Shown: positions 37,256 through 49,343, counted from the stretch's first letter. The stretch: DNA of 64,000 nt from Verrucomicrobiota bacterium (GCA_027624625.1 JAQBWH010000001.1:73946-137945); one strand, 5' to 3'. The notes: a model not told the origin generated them from the letters alone. Numbers and translations are program-made.

Positions 37256-37490
37256 CCGTCTGGAGAGTTGAAAGCAGATCGTCGGCAAAGGCAAACGGAC
37301 AGTGGGACGGCCATCGGAAAGTCTTGCCCGTCATGCGGACTCCGGCGCTGGTCCCGGCGATCAAAGTGCGACGCGCCAAGTGCTCATTCTCATGGCTGGC
37401 AAGTCTGTGGTTCACGATATCTTGATCAACTAGCCATGACTCTGGACCGTCCTGCTACAGCTCCACGGTTGAGCACTGCGCCCCGCAGGC

Positions 37491-37523
37491 AAAAAAAGAA
37501 GCGGCTCCCGAGGGAGCCGCTTC
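37491..37523 (-). terminator. Rho-independent terminator for the small peptide gene
   Basis: On the minus strand: GAAGCGGCTCCC-TCGG-GGAGCCGCTTC, a perfect GC-rich stem, followed by TTTTTTT. It lies 23 nt after the stop at 37547. Confidence 0.75.
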
Positions 37524-37546
37524 TGTGAGTTTCAGGAGGGTCCGAA

Positions 37547-37696
37547 CTAGCTCTGAGCAGGTGCCTCAGCCTCGGCCTTATCCTTGGCCTTCTCCCCACC
37601 CTCTCCGGTGCAGCTTCCAAAGCTGCCGGCGAATGTGGTGGTTGCGAAAGCGGCCGTGGCAAGCGCCGCGACCATAACAGTGAATAGGTTTTTCAT
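37547..37696 (-). CDS. Small secreted peptide (49 aa)
   Basis: Internal ATG gives MKNLFTVMVAALATAAFATTTFA (signal peptide), then GSFGSCTGEGGEKAKDKAEAEAPAQS. A canonical terminator follows. Confidence 0.45.
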   Translation of the reverse strand: MKNLFTVMVAALATAAFATTTFAGSFGSCTGEGGEKAKDKAEAEAPAQS

Positions 37697-37968: not shown

Positions 37969-39369
37969 CTAACTTTGCCACCGACGCTGCTCCGGACCGA
38001 CATCGACCGGGTTGCCCGCTCGCAGAAAATTCTCCGCCAACGCCTCGTAAAGCGCCACCGGACAAACCCGCCGCGAGGCCTCATAGGCCACAATCGACGC
38101 CACCCCCAGCGGTATCGTGAACGCCACCGCCCCCGTCATTTCGATCAGAATGATGAATGCCGTCATGGGACTTTGCACCACGCCAGCGAAGTACGAGACC
38201 ACCCACAACAAAACGATCCCCTGCACCGACGCTCCGGTCACGGCCAGCCAGGGGGCGGTGAGATGTCCCAACCCCGCGCCGACCGAGAAAGACGGATCGA
38301 ACAACCCGCCCGGAATCCCGGTCAGCAGCACCATCATCGTCACGGCTGCGCGTTGCAGCGCATACCACGGACCGATCTTCTCCCGCACTGCCGCCATGCG
38401 CGCCACTTCCTCCGCCGGCAGCGTCGCCAGATACTGCGGACTGTCCTGCAAAATGAGCGCCCTCGCCTGATCGTAACCGGTGCCCAGTGCCGCACCGTTG
38501 GAACTCCAAACCACTCCCGCAGAGGCCAAGCCGAAGACCAGAGCTACCACCCAGAAACGCCGCCGGATCATCCGCGAGACATGCGGCACGACGACGAGAA
38601 GGGTCTTGGCAAAAAGGCCGCCAAGCAGGCCGCCGGCCAATCCGATGATCAGCACCGCAACCCACGGTCCGGGCGACATGAACTCCAGCGGGATGACCCG
38701 GTCATAATCGATCCGCCCGTAGAAAAAATAGTTTCCCAGAAAAACCACGCAGACCAAACACGCCACCATGACCGTGCGCACGATGGTGCCGAGGTTTTCC
38801 TTGTCGAACCGCCGGCCGATTTCTTCGAACGCGAAGACGATCCCGGCGATCGGCGCATTGAAGGCCGCCGCAATACCCGCCGCCCCTCCGCCCATGATCA
38901 GCCCGCGTTCCATCAAATGACGCGGAAACACCGTCCATTTGCTCACCAAGTGCATGAAGCACGCCCCGAGTTGCACGGACGGTCCTTCGCGCCCTATGGA
39001 GAGAAAGGAAAACATCCCCAATCCCAGAAGCAACGCCTTGCCGACCGCCACGCGCATGGACAGCAACCGGTCCCGCAATTCCCCCGGCCCCGCCTGCAAC
39101 ACCGCGATGGTCTGCGGGATCCCCGTGCCATCGGTCCAAGGGAACACGTGATCGCGCAGCCAAAGAATCAAGGCAAATCCCAGCGGCATGATGACGAACA
39201 CCGTCCACGGCGCCGCTTCCCAGACCACGCGCGACAGCTTGGTCGACTGCAGATCAAAGACCCCCAAAAGCAACGCCCCCAGCCCGGCCAAGACCGCGCC
39301 GATCAGCGCCGCCCCCAGCGCCCGCCAGTTGCTGTGCGTGGATTCGTTTTTCATCGGGAATGCGTTCAT
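37969..39369 (-). CDS. ClC-family chloride channel / H+-Cl- antiporter
   Basis: 466 aa. ClC signature segments GTGIPQ, GREGPSVQLGA and GIPGGLFDPS. Confidence 0.9.
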   Translation of the reverse strand: MNAFPMKNESTHSNWRALGAALIGAVLAGLGALLLGVFDLQSTKLSRVVWEAAPWTVFVIMPLGFALILWLRDHVFPWTDGTGIPQTIAVLQAGPGELRDRLLSMRVAVGKALLLGLGMFSFLSIGREGPSVQLGACFMHLVSKWTVFPRHLMERGLIMGGGAAGIAAAFNAPIAGIVFAFEEIGRRFDKENLGTIVRTVMVACLVCVVFLGNYFFYGRIDYDRVIPLEFMSPGPWVAVLIIGLAGGLLGGLFAKTLLVVVPHVSRMIRRRFWVVALVFGLASAGVVWSSNGAALGTGYDQARALILQDSPQYLATLPAEEVARMAAVREKIGPWYALQRAAVTMMVLLTGIPGGLFDPSFSVGAGLGHLTAPWLAVTGASVQGIVLLWVVSYFAGVVQSPMTAFIILIEMTGAVAFTIPLGVASIVAYEASRRVCPVALYEALAENFLRAGNPVDVGPEQRRWQS

Positions 39370-39500: not shown

Positions 39501-40670
39501 TCACTCTGCCTTGGCCGCCGCCAGCGGCTGCGCCTTCAGCGTGATATCCTCCGGCGTGAAATCATTCTGCAGCGCAATAACCCGCATGCCGGGTTGGTCG
39601 AAGTCAATCGCCTTGAGGTCGACTGATTGAATGACCAAGCCATTGTAGGTCCGGACGTAAGTCTTCAGGTTCGTCCGGTCATGCGACACTGCCCACTCGG
39701 TGGTGTCGGTATTGACCAGTTTGGGCTTGCCGCCCGCGGAGAGAAACCCCTTGGTGTTGGCCGTCTGGTCGGCCGTGTTGGTCTGGATGGCACCGTTGAA
39801 GATGTCGAAGGTGTTGAGGATATGGAAACCGAGATTGACCGTCTCCTCGGCCGTGTCGCCCGGGGTGGCCCAATGCGAAAAGAGCGAGGCCCGAATGAAG
39901 CGCGAGGGCGGCGAGAGGTCGCCGGGCAGACCGATGGCACCGGAGCCCTGGCCGTAGTTCACCGCCGTAAATTGACCGAGCTTGCGCTCCAGCACGTTGA
40001 CCGGCGATAGGTCGACGTAGTTGCTCACGTTGATCTCCTGCCAATCGTAAGGCGGCGAATTGGTCAGGGTGCCGAGTGGGGCATCATGGATGTTGAGCCG
40101 GCCATCGATGTATTCAGCAATAACCACCTTGCCGCTGGCATCGCCGATCCACCAATGGACGGGTAGCACTTCCTTGAAGGGCACGAACTCCTGCTGCGCG
40201 ACATAGACATCGTTTTTCAGCGCGGCCACGGCTTCCTCCACCGTGGCACAATTGGCCAGCAGGTAGTTCGGCACCTCCCAGCTGGCGAGCGTCTTGTCGG
40301 CCGGGGCTGTGTCGGCTGCCTGGAATTCGGCATAGCCCGGCAGGTAGAGCATGCCGATGGCCAGCCCTTTCTCGTTTTGTCCATCGGCCACCACAGTGGG
40401 CAGGACATCGACATTCAGGCCAACGTAGCCGTATTTGGTCGTCCACTTCTTGCCAAGTTGCCCGACCGGGGCCGTGCCGGTGTATTCCGTACCCCGCGGA
40501 ACGATGAGCATCTTTGAGTTAAACGGATACCCAAACTCCATGGAGCGAAAATAAATTTGCGCTCCGTCGTTGGATTTGAGTTGGAAGGCCGTGCAGGCCG
40601 ATGCGGGATTGTGAATGCTCAGTGCCACGAGGGCAACCAAGCCAGCCAAGGAAGTCCGGAATCTTTGCAT
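39501..40670 (-). CDS. Secreted choloylglycine-hydrolase-family (linear amide C-N hydrolase, Ntn) protein, paralogue A
   Basis: The signal peptide ends ..NPASA|CTAF, so Cys becomes residue 1 (Ntn nucleophile). FRSMEFG (Arg/Asp pair), LTNSPPYDW (Asn), LPGDLSPPSRFIR. Confidence 0.85.
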   Translation of the reverse strand: MQRFRTSLAGLVALVALSIHNPASACTAFQLKSNDGAQIYFRSMEFGYPFNSKMLIVPRGTEYTGTAPVGQLGKKWTTKYGYVGLNVDVLPTVVADGQNEKGLAIGMLYLPGYAEFQAADTAPADKTLASWEVPNYLLANCATVEEAVAALKNDVYVAQQEFVPFKEVLPVHWWIGDASGKVVIAEYIDGRLNIHDAPLGTLTNSPPYDWQEINVSNYVDLSPVNVLERKLGQFTAVNYGQGSGAIGLPGDLSPPSRFIRASLFSHWATPGDTAEETVNLGFHILNTFDIFNGAIQTNTADQTANTKGFLSAGGKPKLVNTDTTEWAVSHDRTNLKTYVRTYNGLVIQSVDLKAIDFDQPGMRVIALQNDFTPEDITLKAQPLAAAKAE

Positions 40671-40756
40671 AATGCACAATTTTCCATGCCACGTCCGCGA
40701 GGAACAAGGCTAAATCTCTCTGTGCGCCACGGGCCCCAACCGGGGACGTCCGCCGC

Positions 40757-41923
40757 CTACTGCGCTTCGGCCGCGGCGAGCGGTTGCGACTTCGACGAGA
40801 TGTCCTGAGGCGCAAATTCGTTCTGCAGCTCGATGGTCCGTAAGCCCGGTTGTCCGAAGTCGATGGTTTTGTGATCGATCTTCTGGATGAGCGAGCCGCC
40901 GTAAGTCCGGATGTAGGATATCAAGTTCGTGCGGTCATGCGCCACGGCCCACTCGGTGATGTCGCTGTTGACCACCTTGGGTTTTCCCGAGGCGGATAGG
41001 GTTTTGGTCTCCGTCGTTCCATCAGCCTGCTTGCTTTGAATCGCGCCGTTGAAGATGTCGAACGAGTTCAGGACGTGGAAACCGACATTGACCGTCTCCG
41101 ACGCGGTATCGGCTGGAGTAGCCCAGTGCGAGTAAAGCGCCACCCGGACAAAACGGGATGGAGGCGTCATGTCGCCCGGCAGCCCGACTGCACCCGAACC
41201 TTGGCCGTAATTGATCGAAGTAAAATCACCCAGCTTTCGCTCTGCCCTATTGACCGGCGAAAGGTCGACATAATTGCTCACGTTGACTTGCTGCCACTCG
41301 TAGGGTGGCGAGTTGGTGAGGACACCGAGCGGAGCGTCGTGGATAGCCAATTTGCCGTCGACATATTCGGCAATGATCACCTTGCCGCTGGCGTCACCAA
41401 CCCACCAATGGAAGGGCATGACCATTTCGAAGCCCGCAAACTCCTGCTGGGCCACGTAGACGTCGTTGCGCAAAGCCGACGCCGCCTCCTCGACCGTGGC
41501 GCAGCTGGCCAGCAGGTAATTGGCCACCTCCCAACTGCCGATCGTCTTGTCCTGCGGTGCGCTCTCAGCCGGCAAGTATTCGGAAAAGCCCGGTAAATAA
41601 AGCACACCGACCACGAGCCCCTTCTCGTTCATTCCGTCAGCTACGGTGGAAGGCTCTTGTTCAACGTTCATTCCGACATAGCCGTGCTGCACGGCCCATT
41701 TTTTTCCGGCCCTCCCGCCTGGTGCGGTACCGGTGTATTCGGTGCCGCGCGGCACGATAAGAGCTTTTGAATCGAGCGCCTCGCCGAACTCCATCGAGCG
41801 CACATAAATCTGTGCACCGTCATTCGATTTAAGCTGGAAAGCCGTGCAAGCCAAGGCGGGATGGGAAACGCTCAGTGCCAAAACGGCGACCAAGCCAGTC
41901 AGGAGGGTCCGGAAATTTTCCAT
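40757..41923 (-). CDS. Secreted choloylglycine-hydrolase-family protein, paralogue B
   Basis: ..HPALA|CTAF. Closely similar to paralogue A along its whole length (VRSMEFG, LTNSPPYEW, LPGDMTPPSRFVR). Confidence 0.85.
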   Translation of the reverse strand: MENFRTLLTGLVAVLALSVSHPALACTAFQLKSNDGAQIYVRSMEFGEALDSKALIVPRGTEYTGTAPGGRAGKKWAVQHGYVGMNVEQEPSTVADGMNEKGLVVGVLYLPGFSEYLPAESAPQDKTIGSWEVANYLLASCATVEEAASALRNDVYVAQQEFAGFEMVMPFHWWVGDASGKVIIAEYVDGKLAIHDAPLGVLTNSPPYEWQQVNVSNYVDLSPVNRAERKLGDFTSINYGQGSGAVGLPGDMTPPSRFVRVALYSHWATPADTASETVNVGFHVLNSFDIFNGAIQSKQADGTTETKTLSASGKPKVVNSDITEWAVAHDRTNLISYIRTYGGSLIQKIDHKTIDFGQPGLRTIELQNEFAPQDISSKSQPLAAAEAQ

Positions 41924-42036
41924 AAGCGAGAATTTTCGGCACCGGATGCCGTCAGGACAAGGCAATATCCACGCAAAGCCGCGGGCACCTTTACGGCTTC
42001 AGGCTGCTCGTTGCGTTCTGTTTGCCAGCCGCCCAG

Positions 42037-43146
42037 CTACTTCACCTCGACCATGGCCGACGGCGTGAAACTGTCGTGGTCCTGCGGGCCCATTTCGACC
42101 GTGACCATCTTGTCGCCGGCGGCTTGGAGGGCTTGGGCGAGATCGATGACGCGCACATTCGGGTTCCCGTAGGTTTTGAAGTGGAAGTGCTTCTTGGCCA
42201 GGTCGCTGACCACCGTCCATGACGTGTAGTCGGGGAATTTCTCCGAGGTGCCGGCCGGCGGCATGGCGGCGCCGGGCGGGATGTCGAAGTTGTTGAGGAA
42301 ATGAAACATCGTGCCCACGGCCTCGGCGCTGGTGGCCTGCGGTAGGGCGTTTTGCAAATAGAACGCCATGCGCACGAAGCGGGACGGCGGAGTGAAGTCG
42401 CCGGGCAGACCGCGCGAGCCGCCACCCATGCCGAAGGGCGAGAGCTCGAGGTCACCGATTTTCTTGGCGGCAGGATAGGCCGCGGACATGTTGAGGTAGT
42501 TGTTGAGGTTGGTCAGCATCCACGGGAATTCCGGGGCATTGGTCAGCGCGCGCACCGGGTTCTCGTAGACCTCGAGTTTGCCGCCGCGCGGCTCGATGAC
42601 GATGCACGCACCCGAGGGGTCCTGCACTTTGATGTGCATATCGGGAACGATGCCGATGAGGTCGAGCACGACCGGCAACAGCGCGATCTTGTCGATGTTG
42701 GCCTTGACCTCGGCGACGTTGGCAAAATTGCCGAGAATCCAGGCCGTCACTTGGGCCGGCGCCATGCCTTTGGCCGCGTTTTCCGGCGTGGCTTCGGCGT
42801 ATTGCGCGTATCCGGGAAAGTAGAAGAGACCGACGTTCAGCCCTTGGTCGTTGGTGCCGTCGATGAGCATGTCATAGTGCGTCGCCGCGGTCGGCCCGAC
42901 AAAACCGTATTTCGACTTCCAGGAGAGACCGTTTTTTCCGCTCGGAGTCAGTCCAGTGAATTCAGACCCGGCCGGCCAGACGGCGAGCACGGAATTGAGC
43001 GGTTCACCGAATTCCAGCGTGCGCCCGACGGCCACACCGCCGTCCTTGGCGGTGAGCGCCCCCCCGGTGCAGGCGAGCGCGGGTTGGTTGGCAAAAAGCA
43101 TCGCTGCGAGAGCGACTACTGCGGGCAGAATGTTAGGTGTCTTCAT
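42037..43146 (-). CDS. Secreted choloylglycine-hydrolase-family protein, paralogue C
   Basis: Start MKTPNILPAVVALAAMLFANQPALA|CTGG. GRTLEFG, LTNAPEFPW, LPGDFTPPSRFVR. More diverged than A and B. Confidence 0.85.
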   Translation of the reverse strand: MKTPNILPAVVALAAMLFANQPALACTGGALTAKDGGVAVGRTLEFGEPLNSVLAVWPAGSEFTGLTPSGKNGLSWKSKYGFVGPTAATHYDMLIDGTNDQGLNVGLFYFPGYAQYAEATPENAAKGMAPAQVTAWILGNFANVAEVKANIDKIALLPVVLDLIGIVPDMHIKVQDPSGACIVIEPRGGKLEVYENPVRALTNAPEFPWMLTNLNNYLNMSAAYPAAKKIGDLELSPFGMGGGSRGLPGDFTPPSRFVRMAFYLQNALPQATSAEAVGTMFHFLNNFDIPPGAAMPPAGTSEKFPDYTSWTVVSDLAKKHFHFKTYGNPNVRVIDLAQALQAAGDKMVTVEMGPQDHDSFTPSAMVEVK

Positions 43147-43193
43147 TGAGGTATGTGTAGTGGGTCCGAAATAAGCGGAAAAAACGCCGTTGT

Positions 43194-44021
43194 CTATTCC
43201 GGAAACATCGGCGTGATATTGACCCGAAAGCCCCACTGCTGACCGGGCACGGGCGACTGCGCGTAATACTGCAGAGCCACGCCGATCTGCACCGGAATTT
43301 TGCCGATCTTGATCACTTGCGAATACGTGTTGTTGAACGAAATGGTCCAGTCTTGATCGGCCCCCTCGCTGATCCAGTTGTAGGACGATTCGCTGTCCAC
43401 CGCGATGGTCGTCGCCGTTTTGAAGGTGTGCGCGATGAAGGGCTGGAAATACGTCGCATTGTAATCGCCCGGCCCGGCCACGCGCCAGTTCTGCGTGACC
43501 AGCGAGCCGACGGTCCATCCGTTCTTCTGCCAGAGCGCGACACCGGATGGTCCGAGTGTCATGACATCGCCGCCGAGTTTGTTTTGCGTGGCCGTGGGCA
43601 GGATGGATGTCGGCCCGATGCCGCAAATAATGCCGAACGGGCCGGGTGCCGAGGGAGAAAGGAAGGTCTCGATCTCGAGGTCCCCCAACCCACTGACATA
43701 GCCGGGCCCATACACATTGCTCGTCGAGATAAAGGGCAAGACAGGGCGCACGATATAATTCCACTCGGGCGTGATGTGCAGCGGAATCACCGGTTGGAAG
43801 TTGAGCAGATAAAGCGTTCCATTGTTCTCACCCACCCCGAAGTTGAAGTTGTTTTGGAACTGCACGCTGATCAGATCCGCTACGGGATTCTGCAGTTTCA
43901 CGGCCAGAGCCGTGGCATCTGTCGGCGCAGCAGACGCCGTGCCGATGGGAACAGGCTCCGCAGCGAGCGCCGCCGTGGAAATGGAGAAAACAAGGAGCGC
44001 ACTGAGGAGGGGAGATTTCAT
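43194..44021 (-). CDS. Putative outer-membrane beta-barrel channel (MetA-pathway/phenol-degradation-like transporter family)
   Basis: Start MKSPLLSALLVFSISTAALA. Alternating amphipathic strands. LLNFQPVIPL motif and an aromatic-rich C-terminus. Family assignment is tentative. Confidence 0.55.
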   Translation of the reverse strand: MKSPLLSALLVFSISTAALAAEPVPIGTASAAPTDATALAVKLQNPVADLISVQFQNNFNFGVGENNGTLYLLNFQPVIPLHITPEWNYIVRPVLPFISTSNVYGPGYVSGLGDLEIETFLSPSAPGPFGIICGIGPTSILPTATQNKLGGDVMTLGPSGVALWQKNGWTVGSLVTQNWRVAGPGDYNATYFQPFIAHTFKTATTIAVDSESSYNWISEGADQDWTISFNNTYSQVIKIGKIPVQIGVALQYYAQSPVPGQQWGFRVNITPMFPE

Positions 44022-44227: not shown

Positions 44228-44288
44228 GGGGGGAACGGGTAGCCTGCCCGCCTTCAGACAGACAACACGGGCGGGACGCCGTGCCCCC
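44228..44288. repeat. REP-like palindromic element, copy 1 (imperfect)
   Basis: GGGGGAACGGGTAGCCTGCCCG-(17 nt, TTCAGA core)-CGGGCGGGACGCCGTGCCCCC. The arms are imperfect inverted repeats. Same layout and orientation as copy 2. Confidence 0.5.
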
Positions 44289-44438: not shown

Positions 44439-44636
44439 ATGAGCGTGGAGCAAATCGAGCAGGAGGTATCCAAGCTGGAGCGCGACCAGTTCGCACGCTT
44501 CTCCGCATGGTTCGAGCAGTTCCGCGCCGATGCTTGGGACAAGCAAATCACCCGCGATGCGGAGGACGGTAAATTCGATGCCGTCTTCGCAGAGATCGAC
44601 GGGGAGTTGCAGCGCGGCGAGATCCGGCCGCTGTGA
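44439..44636 (+). CDS. Type II antitoxin (putative addiction-module component)
   Basis: 65 aa, acidic and helical (MSVEQIEQEVSKLERDQFARFSAWFEQF...). Its stop overlaps the GTG start of the toxin gene (GTGA). Confidence 0.6.
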   Translation: MSVEQIEQEVSKLERDQFARFSAWFEQFRADAWDKQITRDAEDGKFDAVFAEIDGELQRGEIRPL

Positions 44637-44863
44637 AGCACCTCGCACGGAAATCTTTTTGGGAGCACTACGACCGGCTGCCGAAAAAGACCAAGGCGCT
44701 GGCCGATAAAAATTTCGAACTCCTCAAACAGGATCCTCGGCACCCCTCACTCCAACTCAAAAAAGCCGGACGCCTTTGGTCGGCCCGGGTTGGCCGCGAC
44801 TTCCGCGCCTTGGCTTACGACTCGGCACAAGGACTCGTTTGGTTCTGGGATCGGCCCGCATGA
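44633..44863 (+). CDS. RelE/ParE-superfamily type II toxin, apparently frameshifted near the 3' end
   Basis: The pattern FWEHYDRLPKKTKALADKNFELLKQDPRHPSLQLKK..LWSARVGRDFRAL...LVWFW is typical of this family. The expected tail IGPHDEYERYLGSLGR is encoded in the +1 frame up to the TAG at 44898-44900. Confidence 0.7.
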   Translation: MKHLARKSFWEHYDRLPKKTKALADKNFELLKQDPRHPSLQLKKAGRLWSARVGRDFRALAYDSAQGLVWFWDRPA

Positions 44864-44912
44864 CGAATACGAACGCTACCTCGGCTCACTAGGTCGCTAG
44901 TTCGGCTTTTCA

Positions 44913-44972
44913 GGGGGAACGGGCGTCTCGCCCGTTTTCAGAGCGCCATCACGGGCGAGACGCCCGTGCCGC
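44913..44972. repeat. REP-like palindromic element, copy 2
   Basis: GGGGGAACGGGCGTCTCGCCCG-TTTTCAGAGCGCCATCA-CGGGCGAGACGCCCGTGCCGCC. The arms are near-perfect reverse complements and each arm is itself palindromic (ACGGGCGTCTCGCCCGT). Confidence 0.55.
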
Positions 44973-45042
44973 CAAAAGATCGGTCCGGCGCTACATCCAA
45001 CTCCGCGCTTCACCCCTGCCACGGACATGCTATGCGTCACCG

Positions 45043-46443
45043 ATGTCCAGATCCCCTCGCTTGGCTCTCCTGCTGGCTCTGGCATTTTGTCTCTTGGGCC
45101 ACGAGTGGTCCGCCGCGTTGGAGGGCGACTCCTCTTCCCCCCTGGTGGGGACAGCTGGCTCGCCCTCAAACCAAATGCAGCAGCCCGCTGCGGCGAGCGA
45201 GCCCTACCAAAACACGGACTTTGAACCCGACACGGTCCTGTCGCGCATTTCTTCAATGCTCAAAAAATCCGCCCAGCCATTGGACCTCGAATTCTTCGTC
45301 AACTACTTCGGCGTCTTTCAAGGCAACCCCATCGGCGGCCGGTCGCAGGATTTCGCTTACTCGCAATACCTGCCCTTTGGGTTCGAGTGGAAAGAGCCGC
45401 TCGGCTGGCGCGGCGGCGGCCTTCGGGTTTCCGCGGTCTCCGGCGCGGGCCGAAATCTCTCGGACTCCATCGGCAACGCGTTCACCGTCTCGCAGGCGTG
45501 GGATGGAAACACCCTCTTCCTCTACCAAGCCTACCTTGTGCAAAAAGCCTTCGACGACAAGCTCGAGATCGGCATCGGACGTGTGTCCGCTTCGCAATAC
45601 TTTGCCACGCTTCCCGCGTTCGATTTGCTCGTTTCCGGCGGACTCAATTCCGTGCCCATCGGCCTCGAACTCAACTCGACCTTCACCGGCAGCGCCTCGG
45701 CTTCGTGGTTCGCGGGGGCGCGTTGGCTGCCGATGAAGGAGACCGTTCTCACCGCGGGAGTTTTCCAGGCCCGTGCCGACCTCGGACAAACCGGACCCTA
45801 CAACGGCTTGGATTTCGGACTGGATCCGGACGATGGCACCTTCGGCGTGGTGGAAATCGCTTGGACTCCGCACTCGAAAGAATTCGCCTCCGTGCAGGAG
45901 GACCGGCAATTCACCCGCGGCCGACGTGAGCTCCACGGCAACGGAATCGGTTTTCCCGGCGTTTATAAACTCGGGGCCTATGTCTCGGACCAACCGCAGG
46001 TGTCCTACCCCGGCGGATGGGGCGGGAGCCCTTTCGGATTCTACGGGATGGGACAGCAAATGCTGTGGGAGCACAGCCCGGGTCAGACCAACACCTCGCA
46101 ATTCTCCATCTTCGGGGGCGTGGTCTGGTCACCACCGAGCGGCGTGACGCAAATGCCGGTGGACGGATTCGCCGGCACCGTCTGGCGCGGCCCGTGGAGC
46201 GCGCGTCCTCACGACCATTTATACACATCGTGGCAGATCGGCAGCTTCAGCGAGCCTTACGCGCAAAGTCAGGGGCAAAGTTCCGCCGGTGCCTTCGAGT
46301 CCGTGCTCAACGCGGGCTACGTCATCCAGATCACCAAGGAGTTCTCCGTGCAACCCGACATCCAATACATCATCCAGCCCGGCGGCTTCGGCCAATACGG
46401 TAACGCGCTCGTGCTCGGACTGCAGGTGACGATCGAGTTGTGA
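45043..46443 (+). CDS. Carbohydrate-selective porin, OprB family
   Basis: Signal peptide MSRSPRLALLLALAFCLLG. Segments typical of OprB-type porins (FFVNYFGVFQGNPIGG, LFLYQAYLVQKAFDDKLEIGIGR, and a C-terminal beta-strand ending in an aromatic/aliphatic residue). Confidence 0.75.
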   Translation: MSRSPRLALLLALAFCLLGHEWSAALEGDSSSPLVGTAGSPSNQMQQPAAASEPYQNTDFEPDTVLSRISSMLKKSAQPLDLEFFVNYFGVFQGNPIGGRSQDFAYSQYLPFGFEWKEPLGWRGGGLRVSAVSGAGRNLSDSIGNAFTVSQAWDGNTLFLYQAYLVQKAFDDKLEIGIGRVSASQYFATLPAFDLLVSGGLNSVPIGLELNSTFTGSASASWFAGARWLPMKETVLTAGVFQARADLGQTGPYNGLDFGLDPDDGTFGVVEIAWTPHSKEFASVQEDRQFTRGRRELHGNGIGFPGVYKLGAYVSDQPQVSYPGGWGGSPFGFYGMGQQMLWEHSPGQTNTSQFSIFGGVVWSPPSGVTQMPVDGFAGTVWRGPWSARPHDHLYTSWQIGSFSEPYAQSQGQSSAGAFESVLNAGYVIQITKEFSVQPDIQYIIQPGGFGQYGNALVLGLQVTIEL

Positions 46444-46458: not shown

Positions 46459-46829
46459 TTAATTGCCCGCAGCCCCGGGTAGAATCTGTGTTCCGTCGAG
46501 TTGGTCGTCGTTGATCTTGGCTAGCAGCACCGTGACCACGCCCTTGATGGGCGCGAGTTTGTCGATTTGAATTGGGCGAAATTCATCGCGTCGATCGTGC
46601 GCAGGAAGTAAAGGTTGCGCACCTTGTCGTTCATCCAAGTGAAGAGCGTCACCTCGCTCGTGGTGCTACCCGGCTTTCCTCCTTCGGCCGAGTAACCGCT
46701 GTCTATCGAGAAATCATACGGCCGATCGAAGTTGCTCATGATGTGCCCGAGCGTGATCACGGCGTCCCGCGGCGAGTCGGCCTTGCTCACGTGTTGCGTG
46801 TAGTAGGCTGCTTTGACAACCCGGTTGCC
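46459..46829 (-). pseudogene. 3' fragment of a choloylglycine-hydrolase-family gene (paralogue of 48021..49169), with an internal 1-nt deletion
   Basis: VKAAYYTQHVSKADSPRDAVITLGHIMSNFDRPYDFSIDSGYSAEGGKPGSTTSEVTLFTWMNDKVRNLYFLRTIDAMNFAQF aligns to the C-terminal third of paralogue D. Compared with D (CAGTTCGAGATCGAC), the fragment reads CAATTCAAATCGAC, which shifts the frame. The remaining tail (VVTVLLAKINDDQLDGTQIL) continues in another frame. Confidence 0.7.
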
Positions 46830-47020
46830 CCGGTGTTCATGTGCACGGATACCTTCGATGGTGGCACTGAAGTGCCGGTGAGCTGGCAGCAAGCCTACGC
46901 CGAAAAAGTGACAGAACTTGGCGGCAGCATCGAAGTCAAAGAATACCCGAAGGACGACCATTTCTCCCTGCCGTACAGCTGCGCCCCCGACGTGCGCGAA
47001 TGGTTGAACAGGCTGTTCAG
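46818..47020 (+). pseudogene. Possible 3' fragment of an alpha/beta-hydrolase (S9/dienelactone-hydrolase-like) gene
   Basis: PVFMCTDTFDGGTEVPVSWQQAYAEKVTELGGSIEVKEYPKDDHFSLPY...VREWLNRLF resembles the C-terminal Asp/His region of such hydrolases. Nothing upstream matches an N-terminal part. Confidence 0.35.
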
Positions 47021-47031
47021 ACCCACCCCGC

Positions 47032-47451
47032 TCAGGGCAGTCGCGCAATCAAGACGCCGACCACTGGAGATCCATTCGGCGAATCGGACGTCCGCGAGTT
47101 CGCGAGACGAAACCGGTAGATTCGGGCATCCCCATCAAACCTGCAGGTGCCGCTGTCGGCATCCTCGAAATTAAGGTGCATGACTTCGTCGTTATCCAAG
47201 ATAATCCGCGACGAGCGGCCCGAACTCTTGCCGACATAGGTCCCCTCACGCCGGTCGGTGTAAAGACCGTTCTGTGACAGTGCAGCGAAGCGGTAACGCC
47301 CGCCCGGAAGAAACTGATAGGTGTTGGCGCTGTGCAGGTCGGTGAACTCAAGCTTAGTCCCCGCGAGATCGCGTGTTTTGCCCGCGGCATACGGTGCATC
47401 GATTGCACAACTTGCCAGAAGAGCGCAGATCAGAACGCAGAACATTCTCAT
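47032..47451 (-). CDS. Putative lipoprotein, unknown function
   Basis: The ATG at 47451 gives MRMFCVLICALLASC (lipobox). Confidence 0.55.
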   Translation of the reverse strand: MRMFCVLICALLASCAIDAPYAAGKTRDLAGTKLEFTDLHSANTYQFLPGGRYRFAALSQNGLYTDRREGTYVGKSSGRSSRIILDNDEVMHLNFEDADSGTCRFDGDARIYRFRLANSRTSDSPNGSPVVGVLIARLP

Positions 47452-47527
47452 CAGATCGGATGCCAACCCGCGTGGCTGTAGGGGGACAGTTCCCTTACGT
47501 TCCCCATACGGCTGAGACGCTCGATGC

Positions 47528-47953
47528 TTACCGACCGTCGACGGGCGTTTCTTGGTAGTGCAGTTCCCGCCATTTGCCGTCTTTCCTGACCCAGAGCGAC
47601 GCGACGAGGCAGTGCGAGGGCAACGGATTGCCTTGGTAAGTTCCCTTGAGTTCGAGCGTGTAGTTCACCAGCACGCAACTGTTGCTGACGACATTCACCG
47701 ACATGGGGCCTGCAGAATACTTCTCATATTTCAGTTCCGAAAGCGTCCGGATTTGATCCTTTACCCTCTGCTTTCCGGCGTAGGGAGTGATGGCCAGGTG
47801 GTCGGGTGTCATGAGCGCGCGGATGGTCTTGGCATCGTGCTTCTCAAAGGCCGCATTCAAGGCATCGGCAGCCGCTTTGACTTCTTTGGCCGGATCGGCG
47901 GCTTGCGCTAACGACGCGTGCAGCAGGAGGATGAGAGCAAGGAGATAACGCAT
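47528..47953 (-). CDS. Secreted NTF2-like (SnoaL/DUF4440-type) protein
   Basis: Signal peptide MRYLLALILLLHASLAQA. The layout (AADALNAAFEKHDAKTIRALMTPDH ... LWVRKDGKWRELHYQET) is typical of DUF4440/SnoaL-like domains. Confidence 0.7.
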   Translation of the reverse strand: MRYLLALILLLHASLAQAADPAKEVKAAADALNAAFEKHDAKTIRALMTPDHLAITPYAGKQRVKDQIRTLSELKYEKYSAGPMSVNVVSNSCVLVNYTLELKGTYQGNPLPSHCLVASLWVRKDGKWRELHYQETPVDGR

Positions 47954-48020: not shown

Positions 48021-49169
48021 CTACTCAGCTTTGGCCGCACCGAGGAGCACCTGCGTTCCGTCGAGTTGGTCGTCGTTGATCTTGTCCAACGGAACACTGA
48101 CCACCTTTTTGATGGGCGCCAGCTTGTCGATCTCGAACTGGGCGAAGTTCAGCGCGTCGATCGTGCGCAGGAAGTAAAGATTACGCACCTTGTCGTTCAT
48201 CCAAGTGAACAGCGTCACTTCGCTGGTGGTCTCGCCCGGCTTTCCGCCTTCGGCCGAAAAACCTTTGTCGATCGAGAGATCGTAGGGACGGTCGAAGTTG
48301 TTGAGGATGTGACCGAGCGTGATCACCGCGTCTTCGGGTTTGTCAGCCTTGCGCACAAATTGGGTGTAGAAGGCCGCTTTGACAAAGCGGCCCATGGAGA
48401 TTTGCGAGGATGGAACGTTGGCCAAAGCGTTGCCGCTGTCCGGCGCGTTCACCTTGAGCTGGCCGAACTGACCCGTGTTCCTGTCGAGGTTGGTCAACTG
48501 CGCGTAGTTGTTCAGGTTTTTCAGGTGCCAGCCGAAGTCCGGGGCATTCGTCGCGACGCCCACCGGGTTGTCATGGATGTTCTGCTTGCCATCGAGGTAT
48601 TCGATCACGATGCCCGCGCCGGTCTTGTCGAAGAGGATGTAGTGCATGGGCAGCTCGATGTTCCCCACGAGAGGAACCTTGGGCAGCCAGACGCTGACAC
48701 TGCCGTTGGTGAGCGCCTCCTTGACCTCGGCGACGGATTTGAAGTTGCCGAGGAGATACAATGCGAGGTCCGTGGCCGCCAAAGCTTTCGCGGCCTCGGA
48801 CCCGGCACCGTCCGGCGATTGCGACCCAGGCATTTCGTTGGTGCAGAGCGAGAGCCCTTGGTCGTTGGCCGACTCCACCATCATATTCGGGCCGTCGCCG
48901 ACGCCGGAAGCGGCGCTCACGCCCAACACGGGATATTTCGTCTCGAAAGACAGGCCCGGCTGGTTACCCGGTGCCACCGAAACGACCTTGGTGCCTGCCG
49001 GGACATAGGACATCTCGAAGGGTAGCGGGACGGCATATTCCAAAGTCTTGCCGCTGTAGGCATTGCCTTGCTTGTCGGTGATCATCAGTGCCGTGCAAGC
49101 CCAAGTGCGCGGCGGAAGTATCAGGGCAGCAAGAGCGAGAAGAAGGGGTAGAATACGTGACTTATTCAT
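48021..49169 (-). CDS. Secreted choloylglycine-hydrolase-family protein, paralogue D
   Basis: MNKSRILPLLLALAALILPPRTWA|CTAL, so Cys follows the signal peptide. ATNAPDFGW. The C-terminal tail LGAAKAE resembles the tails of A and B. An alternative start is at 49178. Confidence 0.85.
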   Translation of the reverse strand: MNKSRILPLLLALAALILPPRTWACTALMITDKQGNAYSGKTLEYAVPLPFEMSYVPAGTKVVSVAPGNQPGLSFETKYPVLGVSAASGVGDGPNMMVESANDQGLSLCTNEMPGSQSPDGAGSEAAKALAATDLALYLLGNFKSVAEVKEALTNGSVSVWLPKVPLVGNIELPMHYILFDKTGAGIVIEYLDGKQNIHDNPVGVATNAPDFGWHLKNLNNYAQLTNLDRNTGQFGQLKVNAPDSGNALANVPSSQISMGRFVKAAFYTQFVRKADKPEDAVITLGHILNNFDRPYDLSIDKGFSAEGGKPGETTSEVTLFTWMNDKVRNLYFLRTIDALNFAQFEIDKLAPIKKVVSVPLDKINDDQLDGTQVLLGAAKAE

Positions 49170-49343
49170 AACAGTCATAAGGTTAATCCCCCCCTCCAGC
49201 TCTACAAGTCCCCTCTTTCACGATCATCGGCGAAGCAGCCGATGAGGCCGCCCAGTGTAGGGTCGATCCGGCGACCACGGTCGGCCAGAGTGACGAAGCC
49301 CAATACCAAGGCGATGACGGCTGGCACAAAGAGCGTGACGCCG

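Follow-up and report, generated by a model that had tools for sequence, protein, structure and literature searches.

The window that we have analysed, i.e. the whole stretch of 64,000 nucleotides, holds a cluster of four intact hydrolase genes of the choloylglycine-hydrolase family (CBAH, PF02275), a hydrolase pseudogene and a gene for an outer-membrane barrel. The host is a freshwater or soil Verrucomicrobium of the order Chthoniobacterales. The gene calls of the cluster are solid, and most of them are ordinary.

Four of the genes are co-oriented on the minus strand and follow one another: the barrel gene (43194-44021; 275 aa, start MKSP), CGH-3 (42037-43146; 369 aa, paralogue group B), CGH-2 (40757-41923; 388 aa, group A) and CGH-1 (39501-40670; 389 aa, group A); an earlier note on this DNA had claimed such a set of four, and all of them are present where it had placed them. 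The gaps that separate them, from the barrel gene to CGH-1, are 47, 113 and 86 nt long, with no terminator-like hairpin found in any of the three, and a co-oriented gene for a CLC-type chloride/proton channel (37969-39369, minus strand; PF00654, E = 9e-68) starts 131 nt after CGH-1. The fourth intact hydrolase gene, CGH-4 (48021-49178, minus strand; 382-385 aa, group C), has its 5' boundary at 49169 if the second Met is the start; directly downstream of it, and co-oriented, is located the gene for a SnoaL-like/DUF4440 exported protein of 141 aa (47528-47953, minus strand; PF14534, E = 1e-10; PF13474, E = 3e-9), and a predicted lipoprotein of 144 aa with no Pfam match is encoded at 47032-47466 on the same strand. 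An OprB-family porin gene (45043-46443) is divergent, on the plus strand, and matches PF04966 with 132.7 bits (gathering cut-off 22.9; E = 2.9e-38).

The pseudogene (46462-46829, minus strand) is what is left of the 3' part of a paralogue of the CGH-4 type (aa 264-382, one frameshift): blastn aligns 352 nt of it (46469-46819) with the 3' end of CGH-4 at 81.5% identity and with one gap, its tblastn matches are split between two frames, and it covers HMM positions 255-379. A fourth full copy, a fragment near 46459-46829 and a neighbouring OprB-type porin had all been described in the earlier note and are real; the five-copy expansion that it had claimed has to be corrected to four intact genes and one pseudogene.

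All of the intact hydrolases match PF02275 with 143-225 bits (cut-off 20.4), the E values being 2e-66 for CGH-3, 2e-59 for CGH-2, 3e-59 for CGH-1 and approximately 1.7e-41 for CGH-4, so that their assignment to the choloylglycine-hydrolase family stands. In a tree, they fall into three orthogroups (A, B and C) that are conserved across relatives. CGH-2 is a lineage-specific duplicate of CGH-1, with which it is 70% identical, and orthologues of CGH-1 occur in four relative loci (L001, L002, L004 and L006); the pseudogene remnant recurs in L006 and L007. Every intact hydrolase copy is under purifying selection, with dN/dS values of at most 0.29 (CGH-3, 0.13-0.29; CGH-1, 0.13-0.17; CGH-4, 0.16-0.20; CGH-2 against CGH-1, 0.14), and the values for the barrel gene are 0.11-0.21.

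The N-terminal cysteine, the active site and the nearest relatives

Each hydrolase has a predicted Sec-type signal-peptidase-I site directly before a cysteine. The signal peptides of the three tandem copies end, as had been claimed, in ASA/CTAF, ALA/CTAF and ALA/CTGG (the slash marks the predicted cut), and that of the fourth copy ends in TWA/CTAL; cleavage by signal peptidase I would make the cysteine residue 1 of the mature protein. The same region of 119 exported relatives follows a similar rule: Ala takes position -1 in 97 of the 119, one of Ala, Ser, Thr and Val takes position -3 in 100, and position -2 is commonly polar, charged or bulky.

The active-site set of CGH-3 consists of Cys1, Arg17, Glu20, Phe21, Tyr82, Asn175 and Arg228, while CGH-4 has a variant set, Cys1, Lys17, Glu20, Tyr21, Glu82, Asn175 and Arg228, and five orthologues of CGH-4 all have the same variant residues; the GLPGD motif is missing from CGH-4. 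The earlier note had held that the Arg, Asp, Asn and Arg contexts of the catalytic site are all retained. This is so for Asn175, of the oxyanion hole, and Arg228, which are invariant in all copies and occur in 150 and 147, respectively, of the 150 nearest family representatives (50%-identity clusters), and also for the catalytic Arg at position 17/18 in CGH-1, CGH-2 and CGH-3, but not in CGH-4 and its five orthologues, where Lys takes its place. The claim fails for the Asp: all four copies have Glu at the place of the canonical Asp20/21 (RSMEF, RTLEF, KTLEY). The change is conservative, and since Glu20 is found in 140 of the 150 representatives, it is a feature of the clade and not a sign of decay. 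We know of no Glu20-type CBAH enzyme that has been assayed, and activity is assumed here.

Residue 82 is aromatic in penicillin V acylases (PVAs) and Asn in bile-salt hydrolases (BSHs), with an aromatic partner at position 21 (PMC8066178). CGH-1, CGH-2 and CGH-3 have the PVA-like pair Phe21/Tyr82, while Tyr21/Glu82 of CGH-4 corresponds to neither type. The best PDB sequence matches of CGH-3 are BsuPVA (2oqc) and BspPVA (3pva), and that of CGH-1 is CpBSH (2bjf, 151 bits). [quoted passage not shown] The scores of the window hydrolases stay far below the cut-offs of both equivalog models, with 111-211 bits against 600 for the PVA model (NF058572) and 138-203 bits against 350 for the BSH model (NF038245).

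Three other accounts of these enzymes have to be weighed together. That they are quorum-quenching acylases of acyl-homoserine lactones (AHLs), like PaPVA, AtPVA and SlCGH1 of Shewanella loihica, we regard as quite unlikely: CBAH enzymes with this activity exist (bioRxiv 10.1101/788646; PMC8066178), the predicted location is periplasmic and the adjacent channel is of a type thought to carry hydrophobic molecules, but the window hydrolases score 104-166 bits against their best PDB matches (2oqc or 2bjf; the Gram-positive type, i.e. BsuPVA, BspPVA and CpBSH), against 37-89 bits for the Gram-negative cluster (PaPVA of Pectobacterium atrosepticum, 4wl2; AtPVA of Agrobacterium tumefaciens, 5j9r) and at most 34 bits for SlCGH1. 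Moreover, they align without gaps to BsuPVA across a region (approximately 180-230) that is absent from the Gram-negative cluster, which lacks a 13-19-aa tetramer-assembly motif, i.e. an indel (PMC8066178), and picocyanobacteria and Chromatiaceae have relatives of CGH-3, with 55-63% identity, in gene neighbourhoods unrelated to this one. By these alignments, the nearest relatives are the Gram-positive-type PVAs and the C. perfringens BSH, and not the AHL-acylase PVAs of Gram-negatives; this weakens the earlier note's appeal to AHL and penicillin V cleavage in Gram-negatives, a precedent that belongs to the PaPVA/AtPVA cluster.

It is very unlikely that the enzymes act instead on components of their own envelope, e.g. 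N-acylated lipids, in a housekeeping or remodelling role. The analogy would be with Brucella abortus CGH, which has a putative signal sequence and without which the profile of outer-membrane proteins and the resistance to polymyxin are altered (PMC3234258), and the barrel, OprB and lipoprotein genes are envelope genes around the cluster; the effect in Brucella, however, comes with no defined substrate, the cluster has no linked gene for lipid biosynthesis, and close relatives have between 2 and 6 CBAH copies and differ in their paralogue content, a pattern that accessory catabolic functions show more typically. Still less credible, to the point of being nearly negligible, is a cysteine that is lipid-modified as in lipoproteins, or a set of dead pseudoenzymes. 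The position of the cysteine right after the signal peptide is a lipoprotein hallmark too, and the replacements of Asp20 in all copies and of Arg17 in CGH-4 could be read as loss of function; yet none of the four hydrolases matches the strict lipobox pattern ([LVI][ASTVI][GAS]C) or a PROSITE PS51257-like one, the strict pattern occurs in only 2 of the 119 exported relatives, and the neighbouring 144-aa ORF, with its LLAS/C lipobox, provides an internal contrast to the AxA/C sites of the hydrolases. The predicted N-terminal cysteine of the earlier note is therefore upheld, and the lipoprotein-type modification that it had named as a possible refutation finds no support in these patterns. Loss of activity, for its part, is opposed by the near-invariance of Cys, Asn175 and Arg228, by the prevalence of Glu20 itself and by dN/dS values of 0.11-0.29.

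The outer-membrane barrel and its linkage to the hydrolase genes

Besides a signal peptide, the barrel protein has an N-terminal segment, LAxKLQNPVADLIS, that is conserved, this region being the best-conserved part of its family. Its AlphaFold2 model (pLDDT 86) has 12 strands and an N-terminal helix at residues 36-43, and the best Foldseek match is 4rl8 (TM-score 0.62, E = 4.5e-7, 16% identity), the COG4313 channel Pput2725 of Pseudomonas putida, with FapF nearly equal to it in fold score. Other COG4313/PF13557 channels are SphA, the sphingosine channel of P. aeruginosa, and TcpY. The barrel itself has no match in Pfam or NCBIfam, including PF13557, even at E = 10, while one of 15 members of its family matches PF13557 (E = 3e-8). 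The model thus supports the putative outer-membrane beta-barrel channel of the earlier note, and suggests a remote, uncurated relative of the COG4313/PF13557 channels; for Pput2725, the uptake of hydrophobic molecules has been proposed by its authors (PMC4493636).

Barrels that are at least 77% identical (the Chthoniobacterales type) have CBAH genes within 10 kb in 12 of 12 loci. In most lineages a group-B gene (CBAH-B) directly follows the barrel gene, at a distance of 41-47 nt in four and of 165 and 288 nt in two others; in L092, there is no barrel gene directly upstream. The surroundings are partly conserved as well: the CLC gene follows the last CBAH gene in L001, L002, L006-L008 and L092, the OprB porin is also found in L001, L004/L005, L006 and L007, and the SnoaL-like/DUF4440 gene in L006 and L007.

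The pair is conserved within one order, and inherited synteny alone could account for this. Adjacency with no functional coupling, with the barrel being a small general-purpose channel or one member of a different outer-membrane pair and the CBAH enzymes acting on amides that arrive e.g. via OprB or by diffusion, is a possibility to be taken seriously, though we find it somewhat unlikely. It agrees with what is seen away from the close relatives: CBAH is missing within 10 kb from all 76 loci in which the barrel is 38-49% identical, their neighbours are diverse (sulfatase CxPxR-motif, SYLF-like and amidohydrolase-like proteins), and approximately 25 of the 76 hold instead another uncharacterised family of outer-membrane proteins, also found between CBAH genes in L001 and L004. 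Conversely, the barrel is missing from 25 of the 26 evaluable metagenome CBAH loci and also from the CBAH loci of Thiocapsa sp. KS1, Cyanobium gracile and the metagenome contig L091; in other phyla, homologues of CGH-3 occur as single copies without a barrel, and in L004/L005, 6.8 kb of unrelated genes part the barrel from CBAH-B. The co-conservation of the hydrolases with the outer-membrane gene therefore holds among the close barrels and fails among the distant ones, and on the CBAH side it is seen in one of 26 loci. Against mere inheritance stand three observations: the 41-47-nt gap persists despite a dS of 0.45-0.8 between lineages; in L010 and L012, the gene after the barrel is still a CBAH gene although its sequence is divergent; and in the unrelated contig L093, a CBAH gene precedes a 37%-identical barrel gene, an independent pair in reversed order.

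Proposed function and comparison with known systems

The reading that we prefer, at about even odds, is that of a lineage-specific Chthoniobacterales set of periplasmic CBAH-family Cys-Ntn amidases, possibly supplied by a channel. Each hydrolase would be exported via its Sec signal peptide and cut by signal peptidase I before the cysteine, whose thiol, together with the free alpha-amine of Cys1, would attack a non-peptide C-N bond, with the support of Arg17 (Lys in CGH-4), Glu20 in place of Asp, the backbone NH of residue 82, Asn175 and Arg228. Three old paralogue lineages are retained under purifying selection and differ in their pocket residues, and the differences (Phe21/Tyr82 in groups A and B; Lys17, Tyr21 and Glu82 in group C) fit different substrate ranges. 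The barrel, with which the first hydrolase gene after it, in most clade members that of group B, may be co-transcribed, probably gives amphipathic or hydrophobic amides of the N-acyl or aryl-acyl type entry to the periplasm, and the hydrolases would there split them into acid and amine. Neither a gene for an inner-membrane transporter nor one for downstream catabolism is linked to the cluster.

A stronger form, in which the COG4313-like channel and the three diverged periplasmic amidases make up a single module dedicated to the uptake and deacylation of N-acyl or aryl-acyl amides from the environment, in Chthoniobacterales of freshwater and soil, strikes us as doubtful. Such a module would include a Glu20 clade without a characterised member and an active-site variant with Lys17 and Glu82; if real, it would be the first CBAH system coupled to a channel, and would offer a route to the substrates that "penicillin V acylase-like" enzymes have in nature.

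With BsuPVA (YxeI of Bacillus subtilis, 2oqc), the PVA of Lysinibacillus sphaericus (3pva) and CpBSH of Clostridium perfringens (2bjf), the amidases of the window share family, fold and the residues Cys1, Arg17, Asn175 and Arg228, and CGH-1, CGH-2 and CGH-3 also share the Phe21/Tyr82 pair of the Gram-positive PVAs. They differ from these cytoplasmic enzymes in their predicted Sec export, in having Glu20 and not Asp20, in the C-terminal tails of CGH-1 and CGH-2, which are approximately 50 aa longer, and in occurring as several paralogues beside an outer-membrane channel in an environmental Verrucomicrobium. PaPVA, AtPVA and Brucella abortus CGH belong to the same family, expose Cys1 on removal of the signal peptide and likewise have a periplasmic or extracellular location; the PaPVA/AtPVA cluster, however, uses a Trp/Trp aromatic pair (PMC8066178), and a linked outer-membrane channel is not mentioned for these three enzymes in the literature surveyed. 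The barrel, in turn, has in common with the COG4313 channels the 12 predicted strands, a length of approximately 250-270 residues and an N-terminal segment before strand 1, and differs from them in its lack of a PF13557 match and its low identity to 4rl8.

Finally, gut bacteria carry multiple BSH paralogues, up to four per strain, of low mutual identity (PMC8066178), and so resemble the window in having several low-identity CBAH copies per genome. The host of the window, unlike these gut bacteria, lives in a habitat without bile, and its copies are set apart by lying within 10 kb of one another, by their predicted export and by orthogroups that are conserved across the clade.

Gene content and flanks of the locus

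The hydrolase locus opens with the gene of a 275-residue outer-membrane protein, hereafter the barrel (43194-44021, start MKSPLL), followed on the same, minus strand by three genes of the CBAH family of Cys-Ntn hydrolases, namely CGH-3 (42037-43146, 369 residues), CGH-2 (40757-41923, 388 residues) and CGH-1 (39501-40670, 389 residues), and then, after CGH-1, by the gene of a CLC chloride/proton channel (37969-39369); the spacings are 47, 113, 86 and 131 nt in turn. A fourth intact paralogue, CGH-4 (48021-49178, minus strand), has the gene of a SnoaL-like/DUF4440 exported protein directly downstream (47528-47953), and a glutamate-decarboxylase-type PLP enzyme gene (49758-51191) flanks the CBAH cluster. 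The reported barrel and hydrolase genes are all real, lie on the minus strand and were placed correctly in the earlier note; the four hydrolases match PF02275 (E = 2e-42 to 2e-66), and the porin gene (45043-46443, plus strand) is indeed of the OprB type. The additional hydrolase fragment is also real, as a 352-nt stretch at 46469-46819 that shares 81.5% identity with the 3' end of the CGH-4 gene, but it carries one frameshift, so the proposed five-copy expansion becomes four intact genes and one pseudogene. The observation itself is confirmed with corrections, and its interpretation is partly supported.

No terminator-like hairpin was found in the four intergenic gaps from the barrel to the CLC gene; an Rfam scan of the window between 37 and 52 kb gave no family at threshold. 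Neither a riboswitch nor any other known RNA was found ahead of the genes, the sole match being a sub-threshold sRNA (37476-37608). A sigma-70 promoter scan, the outcome of which is uninformative for Verrucomicrobia, gave zero sites. The window is part of a Chthoniobacterales (Verrucomicrobiota) genome. The metagenome-assembled genome GCA_027592505.1 has an identical barrel protein and the same gene order, and close homologues carry the labels Chthoniobacterales or Chthoniobacter.

Between the barrel and the OprB gene lies a toxin-antitoxin-like pair on the plus strand, made up of a 65-residue ORF (44439-44636) and an overlapping, ParE-like ORF of 88 residues (44633-44899), whose match to PF24732 (E = 6.5e-5) falls slightly short of the gathering score. 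Direct repeats of 52 nt with 77% identity (44229-44280 and 44913-44964) bracket the pair, and the downstream one (44913-44964) is located inside a hairpin with 23-nt arms (44913-44973). Since other toxin-antitoxin genes (HicB, PhdYeFM, VapBC) occur at the same place in relatives, this interval appears to be an insertion hotspot. On the strand opposite to the pseudogene and adjoining it is an apparent alpha/beta-hydrolase C-terminal remnant (46830-47048, plus strand, EVKEYPKDDHFSLPY); because an Abhydrolase_1 gene, intact or split, is located just upstream of the barrel in two compared loci (L001 and L002), the junction is probably a rearrangement scar.

In E. coli, a CLC channel and glutamate decarboxylase cooperate in acid resistance; for the CBAH cluster, the support for such a link consists of the synteny, within the clade, of the CLC and glutamate-decarboxylase-like flanks. 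A bicupin gene is located near the decarboxylase gene in L002. In Thiocapsa sp. KS1, which has a single CBAH gene, a SnoaL_3 protein gene (L089:3787-4188) is located 1.8 kb away from it; the presence of SnoaL-like genes near CBAH genes both there and in the window may be coincidence.

Export and active sites of the hydrolases

The signal peptides of the four hydrolases end in PASA, PALA, PALA and RTWA, directly before the cysteine, and a strict or PROSITE-like lipobox is matched in none of them. Among 119 exported relatives, 97 have Ala at position -1 and 100 have Ala, Ser, Thr or Val at position -3, while Phe, Gln, Asn, Asp or Glu is frequent at position -2, and a strict lipobox occurs in only 2; the adjoining 144-residue ORF (47032-47466), by contrast, has a classic LLAS/C lipobox. 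The earlier description of a signal peptide that stops right before the cysteine holds. As the window copies are free of a lipobox and the relatives follow the AxA rule, the reading of the hydrolases as lipoproteins is rejected. From these sequence patterns, cleavage by signal peptidase I, exposing Cys1, would be the expected route.

Alignment with solved structures and among the paralogues places Cys1, Asn175 and Arg228 in all four copies, and Arg17 in CGH-1, CGH-2 and CGH-3, with Lys at this position in CGH-4. The canonical Asp20/21, previously thought to be retained, is Glu in every copy. When 1.84 billion proteins were searched and the matches clustered at 50% identity, the same Glu was present in 140 of the top 150 representatives, and the Cys, Arg, Asn and Arg positions were near-invariant in this set; Glu20 is therefore not a sign of decay. 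The environmental clade of the nearest relatives is large (1227 cluster representatives at E <= 1e-30, whole profile). Relatives carry the label "choloylglycine hydrolase family protein" or the label "linear amide C-N hydrolase"; a search of the literature on Verrucomicrobial CBAH enzymes found nothing relevant.

A CBAH tree of all copies from the window and eight related lineages contains three orthogroups, A (CGH-1), B (CGH-3) and C (CGH-4), with CGH-2 as a group A duplicate that is limited to the window's own lineage; CGH-1 and CGH-2 are 70% identical, and every other pair is 27-35% identical. Some relatives have additional deep branches, and the copy number across relatives ranges from 2 to 6 per 20 kb. 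Orthologue dN/dS is in the range 0.11-0.29 for the barrel and for each of the hydrolases. Given these low values, the clade-wide Glu and the fixation of the variant residues in orthologues, the reading as pseudoenzymes or decay is rejected; all the hydrolase and barrel genes are maintained, the hydrolases with distinct, fixed pocket residues.

The residue at oxyanion position 82 is aromatic in penicillin V acylases (PVAs) and Asn in bile-salt hydrolases (BSHs) (PMC8066178). CGH-1, CGH-2 and CGH-3 carry Phe21 and Tyr82, a pair common to BspPVA and BsuPVA, and CGH-4 and its five orthologues carry Tyr21 and Glu82. With the NCBIfam equivalog models of PVA and BSH, the scores of all four copies are far under the cut-offs. 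With bit scores taken as a proxy for a full phylogeny, the best PDB matches of CGH-3 are BsuPVA (166 bits) and BspPVA (162 bits), and CpBSH is the best match of both CGH-1 (151 bits) and CGH-4 (104 bits). Superposition of an AF2 model of the mature CGH-3 protein (pTM 0.82) on BspPVA and BsuPVA gives TM 0.83-0.89. The hydrolases are Gram-positive-type, PVA-like CBAH proteins with acquired export signals.

The barrel and its linkage to the hydrolases

Neither Pfam nor NCBIfam gives a match to the barrel, even at E = 10, and its family profile found nothing among PDB sequences; the family itself counts 2460 matches across Verrucomicrobia, Rhizobiales, Planctomycetes and Acidobacteria, and PF13557 matches 1 of 15 members. 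In the AF2 model (pLDDT 86), 12 strands follow a short helix; this helix falls within LAxKLQNPVADLIS, the family's most conserved motif. The top PDB structure match is the COG4313 channel Pput2725 (TM 0.62, E = 4.5e-7), with the FapF channel as a close runner-up.

Where the barrel is at least 77% identical to that of the window, CBAH genes are located within 10 kb at 12/12 loci. In four lineages, the gap between the barrel and the group B gene is 41-47 nt; two more have gaps of 165 and 288 nt, and a further one has 944 nt. In L004/L005 the gap is 6.8 kb and contains genes for a kinase, a regulator, a fumarase, a malic enzyme and a porin; in L010 and L012, divergent CBAH types still come after the barrel. 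One group B gene (L092) is without a barrel directly upstream, with the contig end 1.4 kb away. In a predicted metagenome protein of 373 residues, P0062, barrel residues ~1-215 are followed directly by the C-terminal half of a CBAH (PF02275) protein; we have rejected it as a meaningful fusion, its most likely origin being a deletion or an assembly chimera that spans the adjacent genes.

Outside the clade, a general association fails from both sides. Barrels that are 38-49% identical have varied neighbours, with CBAH within 10 kb at none of 76 loci (1.3 Mb scanned). From the hydrolase side, homologues of CGH-3 (55-63% identity) occur in Thiocapsa, Cyanobium, Synechococcus and Synechocystis, among others, and at three examined loci (Thiocapsa sp. 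KS1, Cyanobium gracile and one further contig) the CBAH gene is single-copy with unrelated neighbours; a barrel is present at 7 of 80 metagenome CBAH loci, all seven with the Chthoniobacterales arrangement, and at only 1 of 26 loci with at least 1.5 kb either side of the CBAH gene(s). One exception to this lack of a general association, on an unrelated metagenome contig (L093, 4540-6626), has a CBAH gene 63% identical to CGH-3, then 153 nt, then a barrel 37% identical to that of the window, in reversed gene order; this pairing is independent of that in the window. The L093 pair is flanked by a 7TMR-DISM sensor kinase on one side and by a response regulator on the other, and is possibly under two-component control.

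The outer-membrane-channel linkage of the earlier note thus stands mostly within the clade and falls outside it. A coupling of barrel and hydrolases that is limited to this lineage is plausible; the adjacency may also be inherited synteny. A second, uncharacterised outer-membrane protein family, OMP2 (~257 residues, signal peptide, C-terminus GPIIGLSFEF, no Pfam match at E <= 1), is encoded between CBAH genes in close relatives (L001:12079-12852, L004:12975-13748) and is absent from the window; further members are found at L019:10815-11603, L027:10864-11709 and L079:10814-11572. Since OMP2 homologues lie within 10 kb of the barrel at ~25 of the 76 distant loci (Verrucomicrobia, Rhizobiales, Planctomycetes), often directly downstream, OMP2 rather than CBAH seems to be the widely conserved partner of the barrel.

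Proposed function and comparison with known systems

We propose that the barrel and the three downstream hydrolase genes would form a single transcript, that the barrel would let in amphipathic or hydrophobic amides, and that the hydrolases would act on these as periplasmic Cys-Ntn amidases, with Glu20 in the role of Asp20 and with specificities that differ among groups A, B and C. The proposal builds on the family, fold, export signal, conserved residues and purifying selection of the hydrolases, on the barrel fold and on synteny. The PVA-like Phe21/Tyr82 pair of groups A and B suggests a substrate whose acyl group is aromatic or else hydrophobic and bulky in some other way; the substrate of group C should be unlike theirs. 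Acyl-homoserine lactones (AHLs), for which the earlier note had cited cleavage by Gram-negative members as a precedent, are possible substrates, but similarity scores disfavour them: the Gram-negative periplasmic PVAs with AHL-acylase activity reach just 37-89 bits and SlCGH1 no more than 34 bits, against 104-166 bits for the best PDB matches. By analogy with Brucella CGH, a role in envelope maintenance would be a minor alternative to amide uptake and hydrolysis.

We know of no assayed member of the Glu20 clade. The family is very well known; the Glu20 clade as a distinct group, the Lys17/Glu82 variant and the clade-specific position behind a COG4313-like barrel are, to our knowledge, undescribed. 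A single locus brings together three conserved types of paralogue, of which one has a further altered active site, next to a channel whose fold is associated with the uptake of hydrophobic molecules. Should the coupling prove real, the locus would point to a scavenging route for amide-linked lipids or aromatic amides in abundant freshwater and soil Verrucomicrobia, and the hydrolases would be candidate acylases for biocatalysis or quorum quenching; if it is not real, the locus is a routine expansion of a well-known family.

For COG4313 channels, uptake of hydrophobic molecules was proposed by the authors of the Pput2725 structure, and the sphingosine channel SphA was named as a member of known function (PMC4493636); the modelled barrel resembles this family in fold, although its sequence did not place it there. 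The hydrolases resemble Brucella CGH, which has a putative signal sequence and for which a like processing was proposed, in the predicted removal of the signal that would expose Cys1 (PMC3234258).
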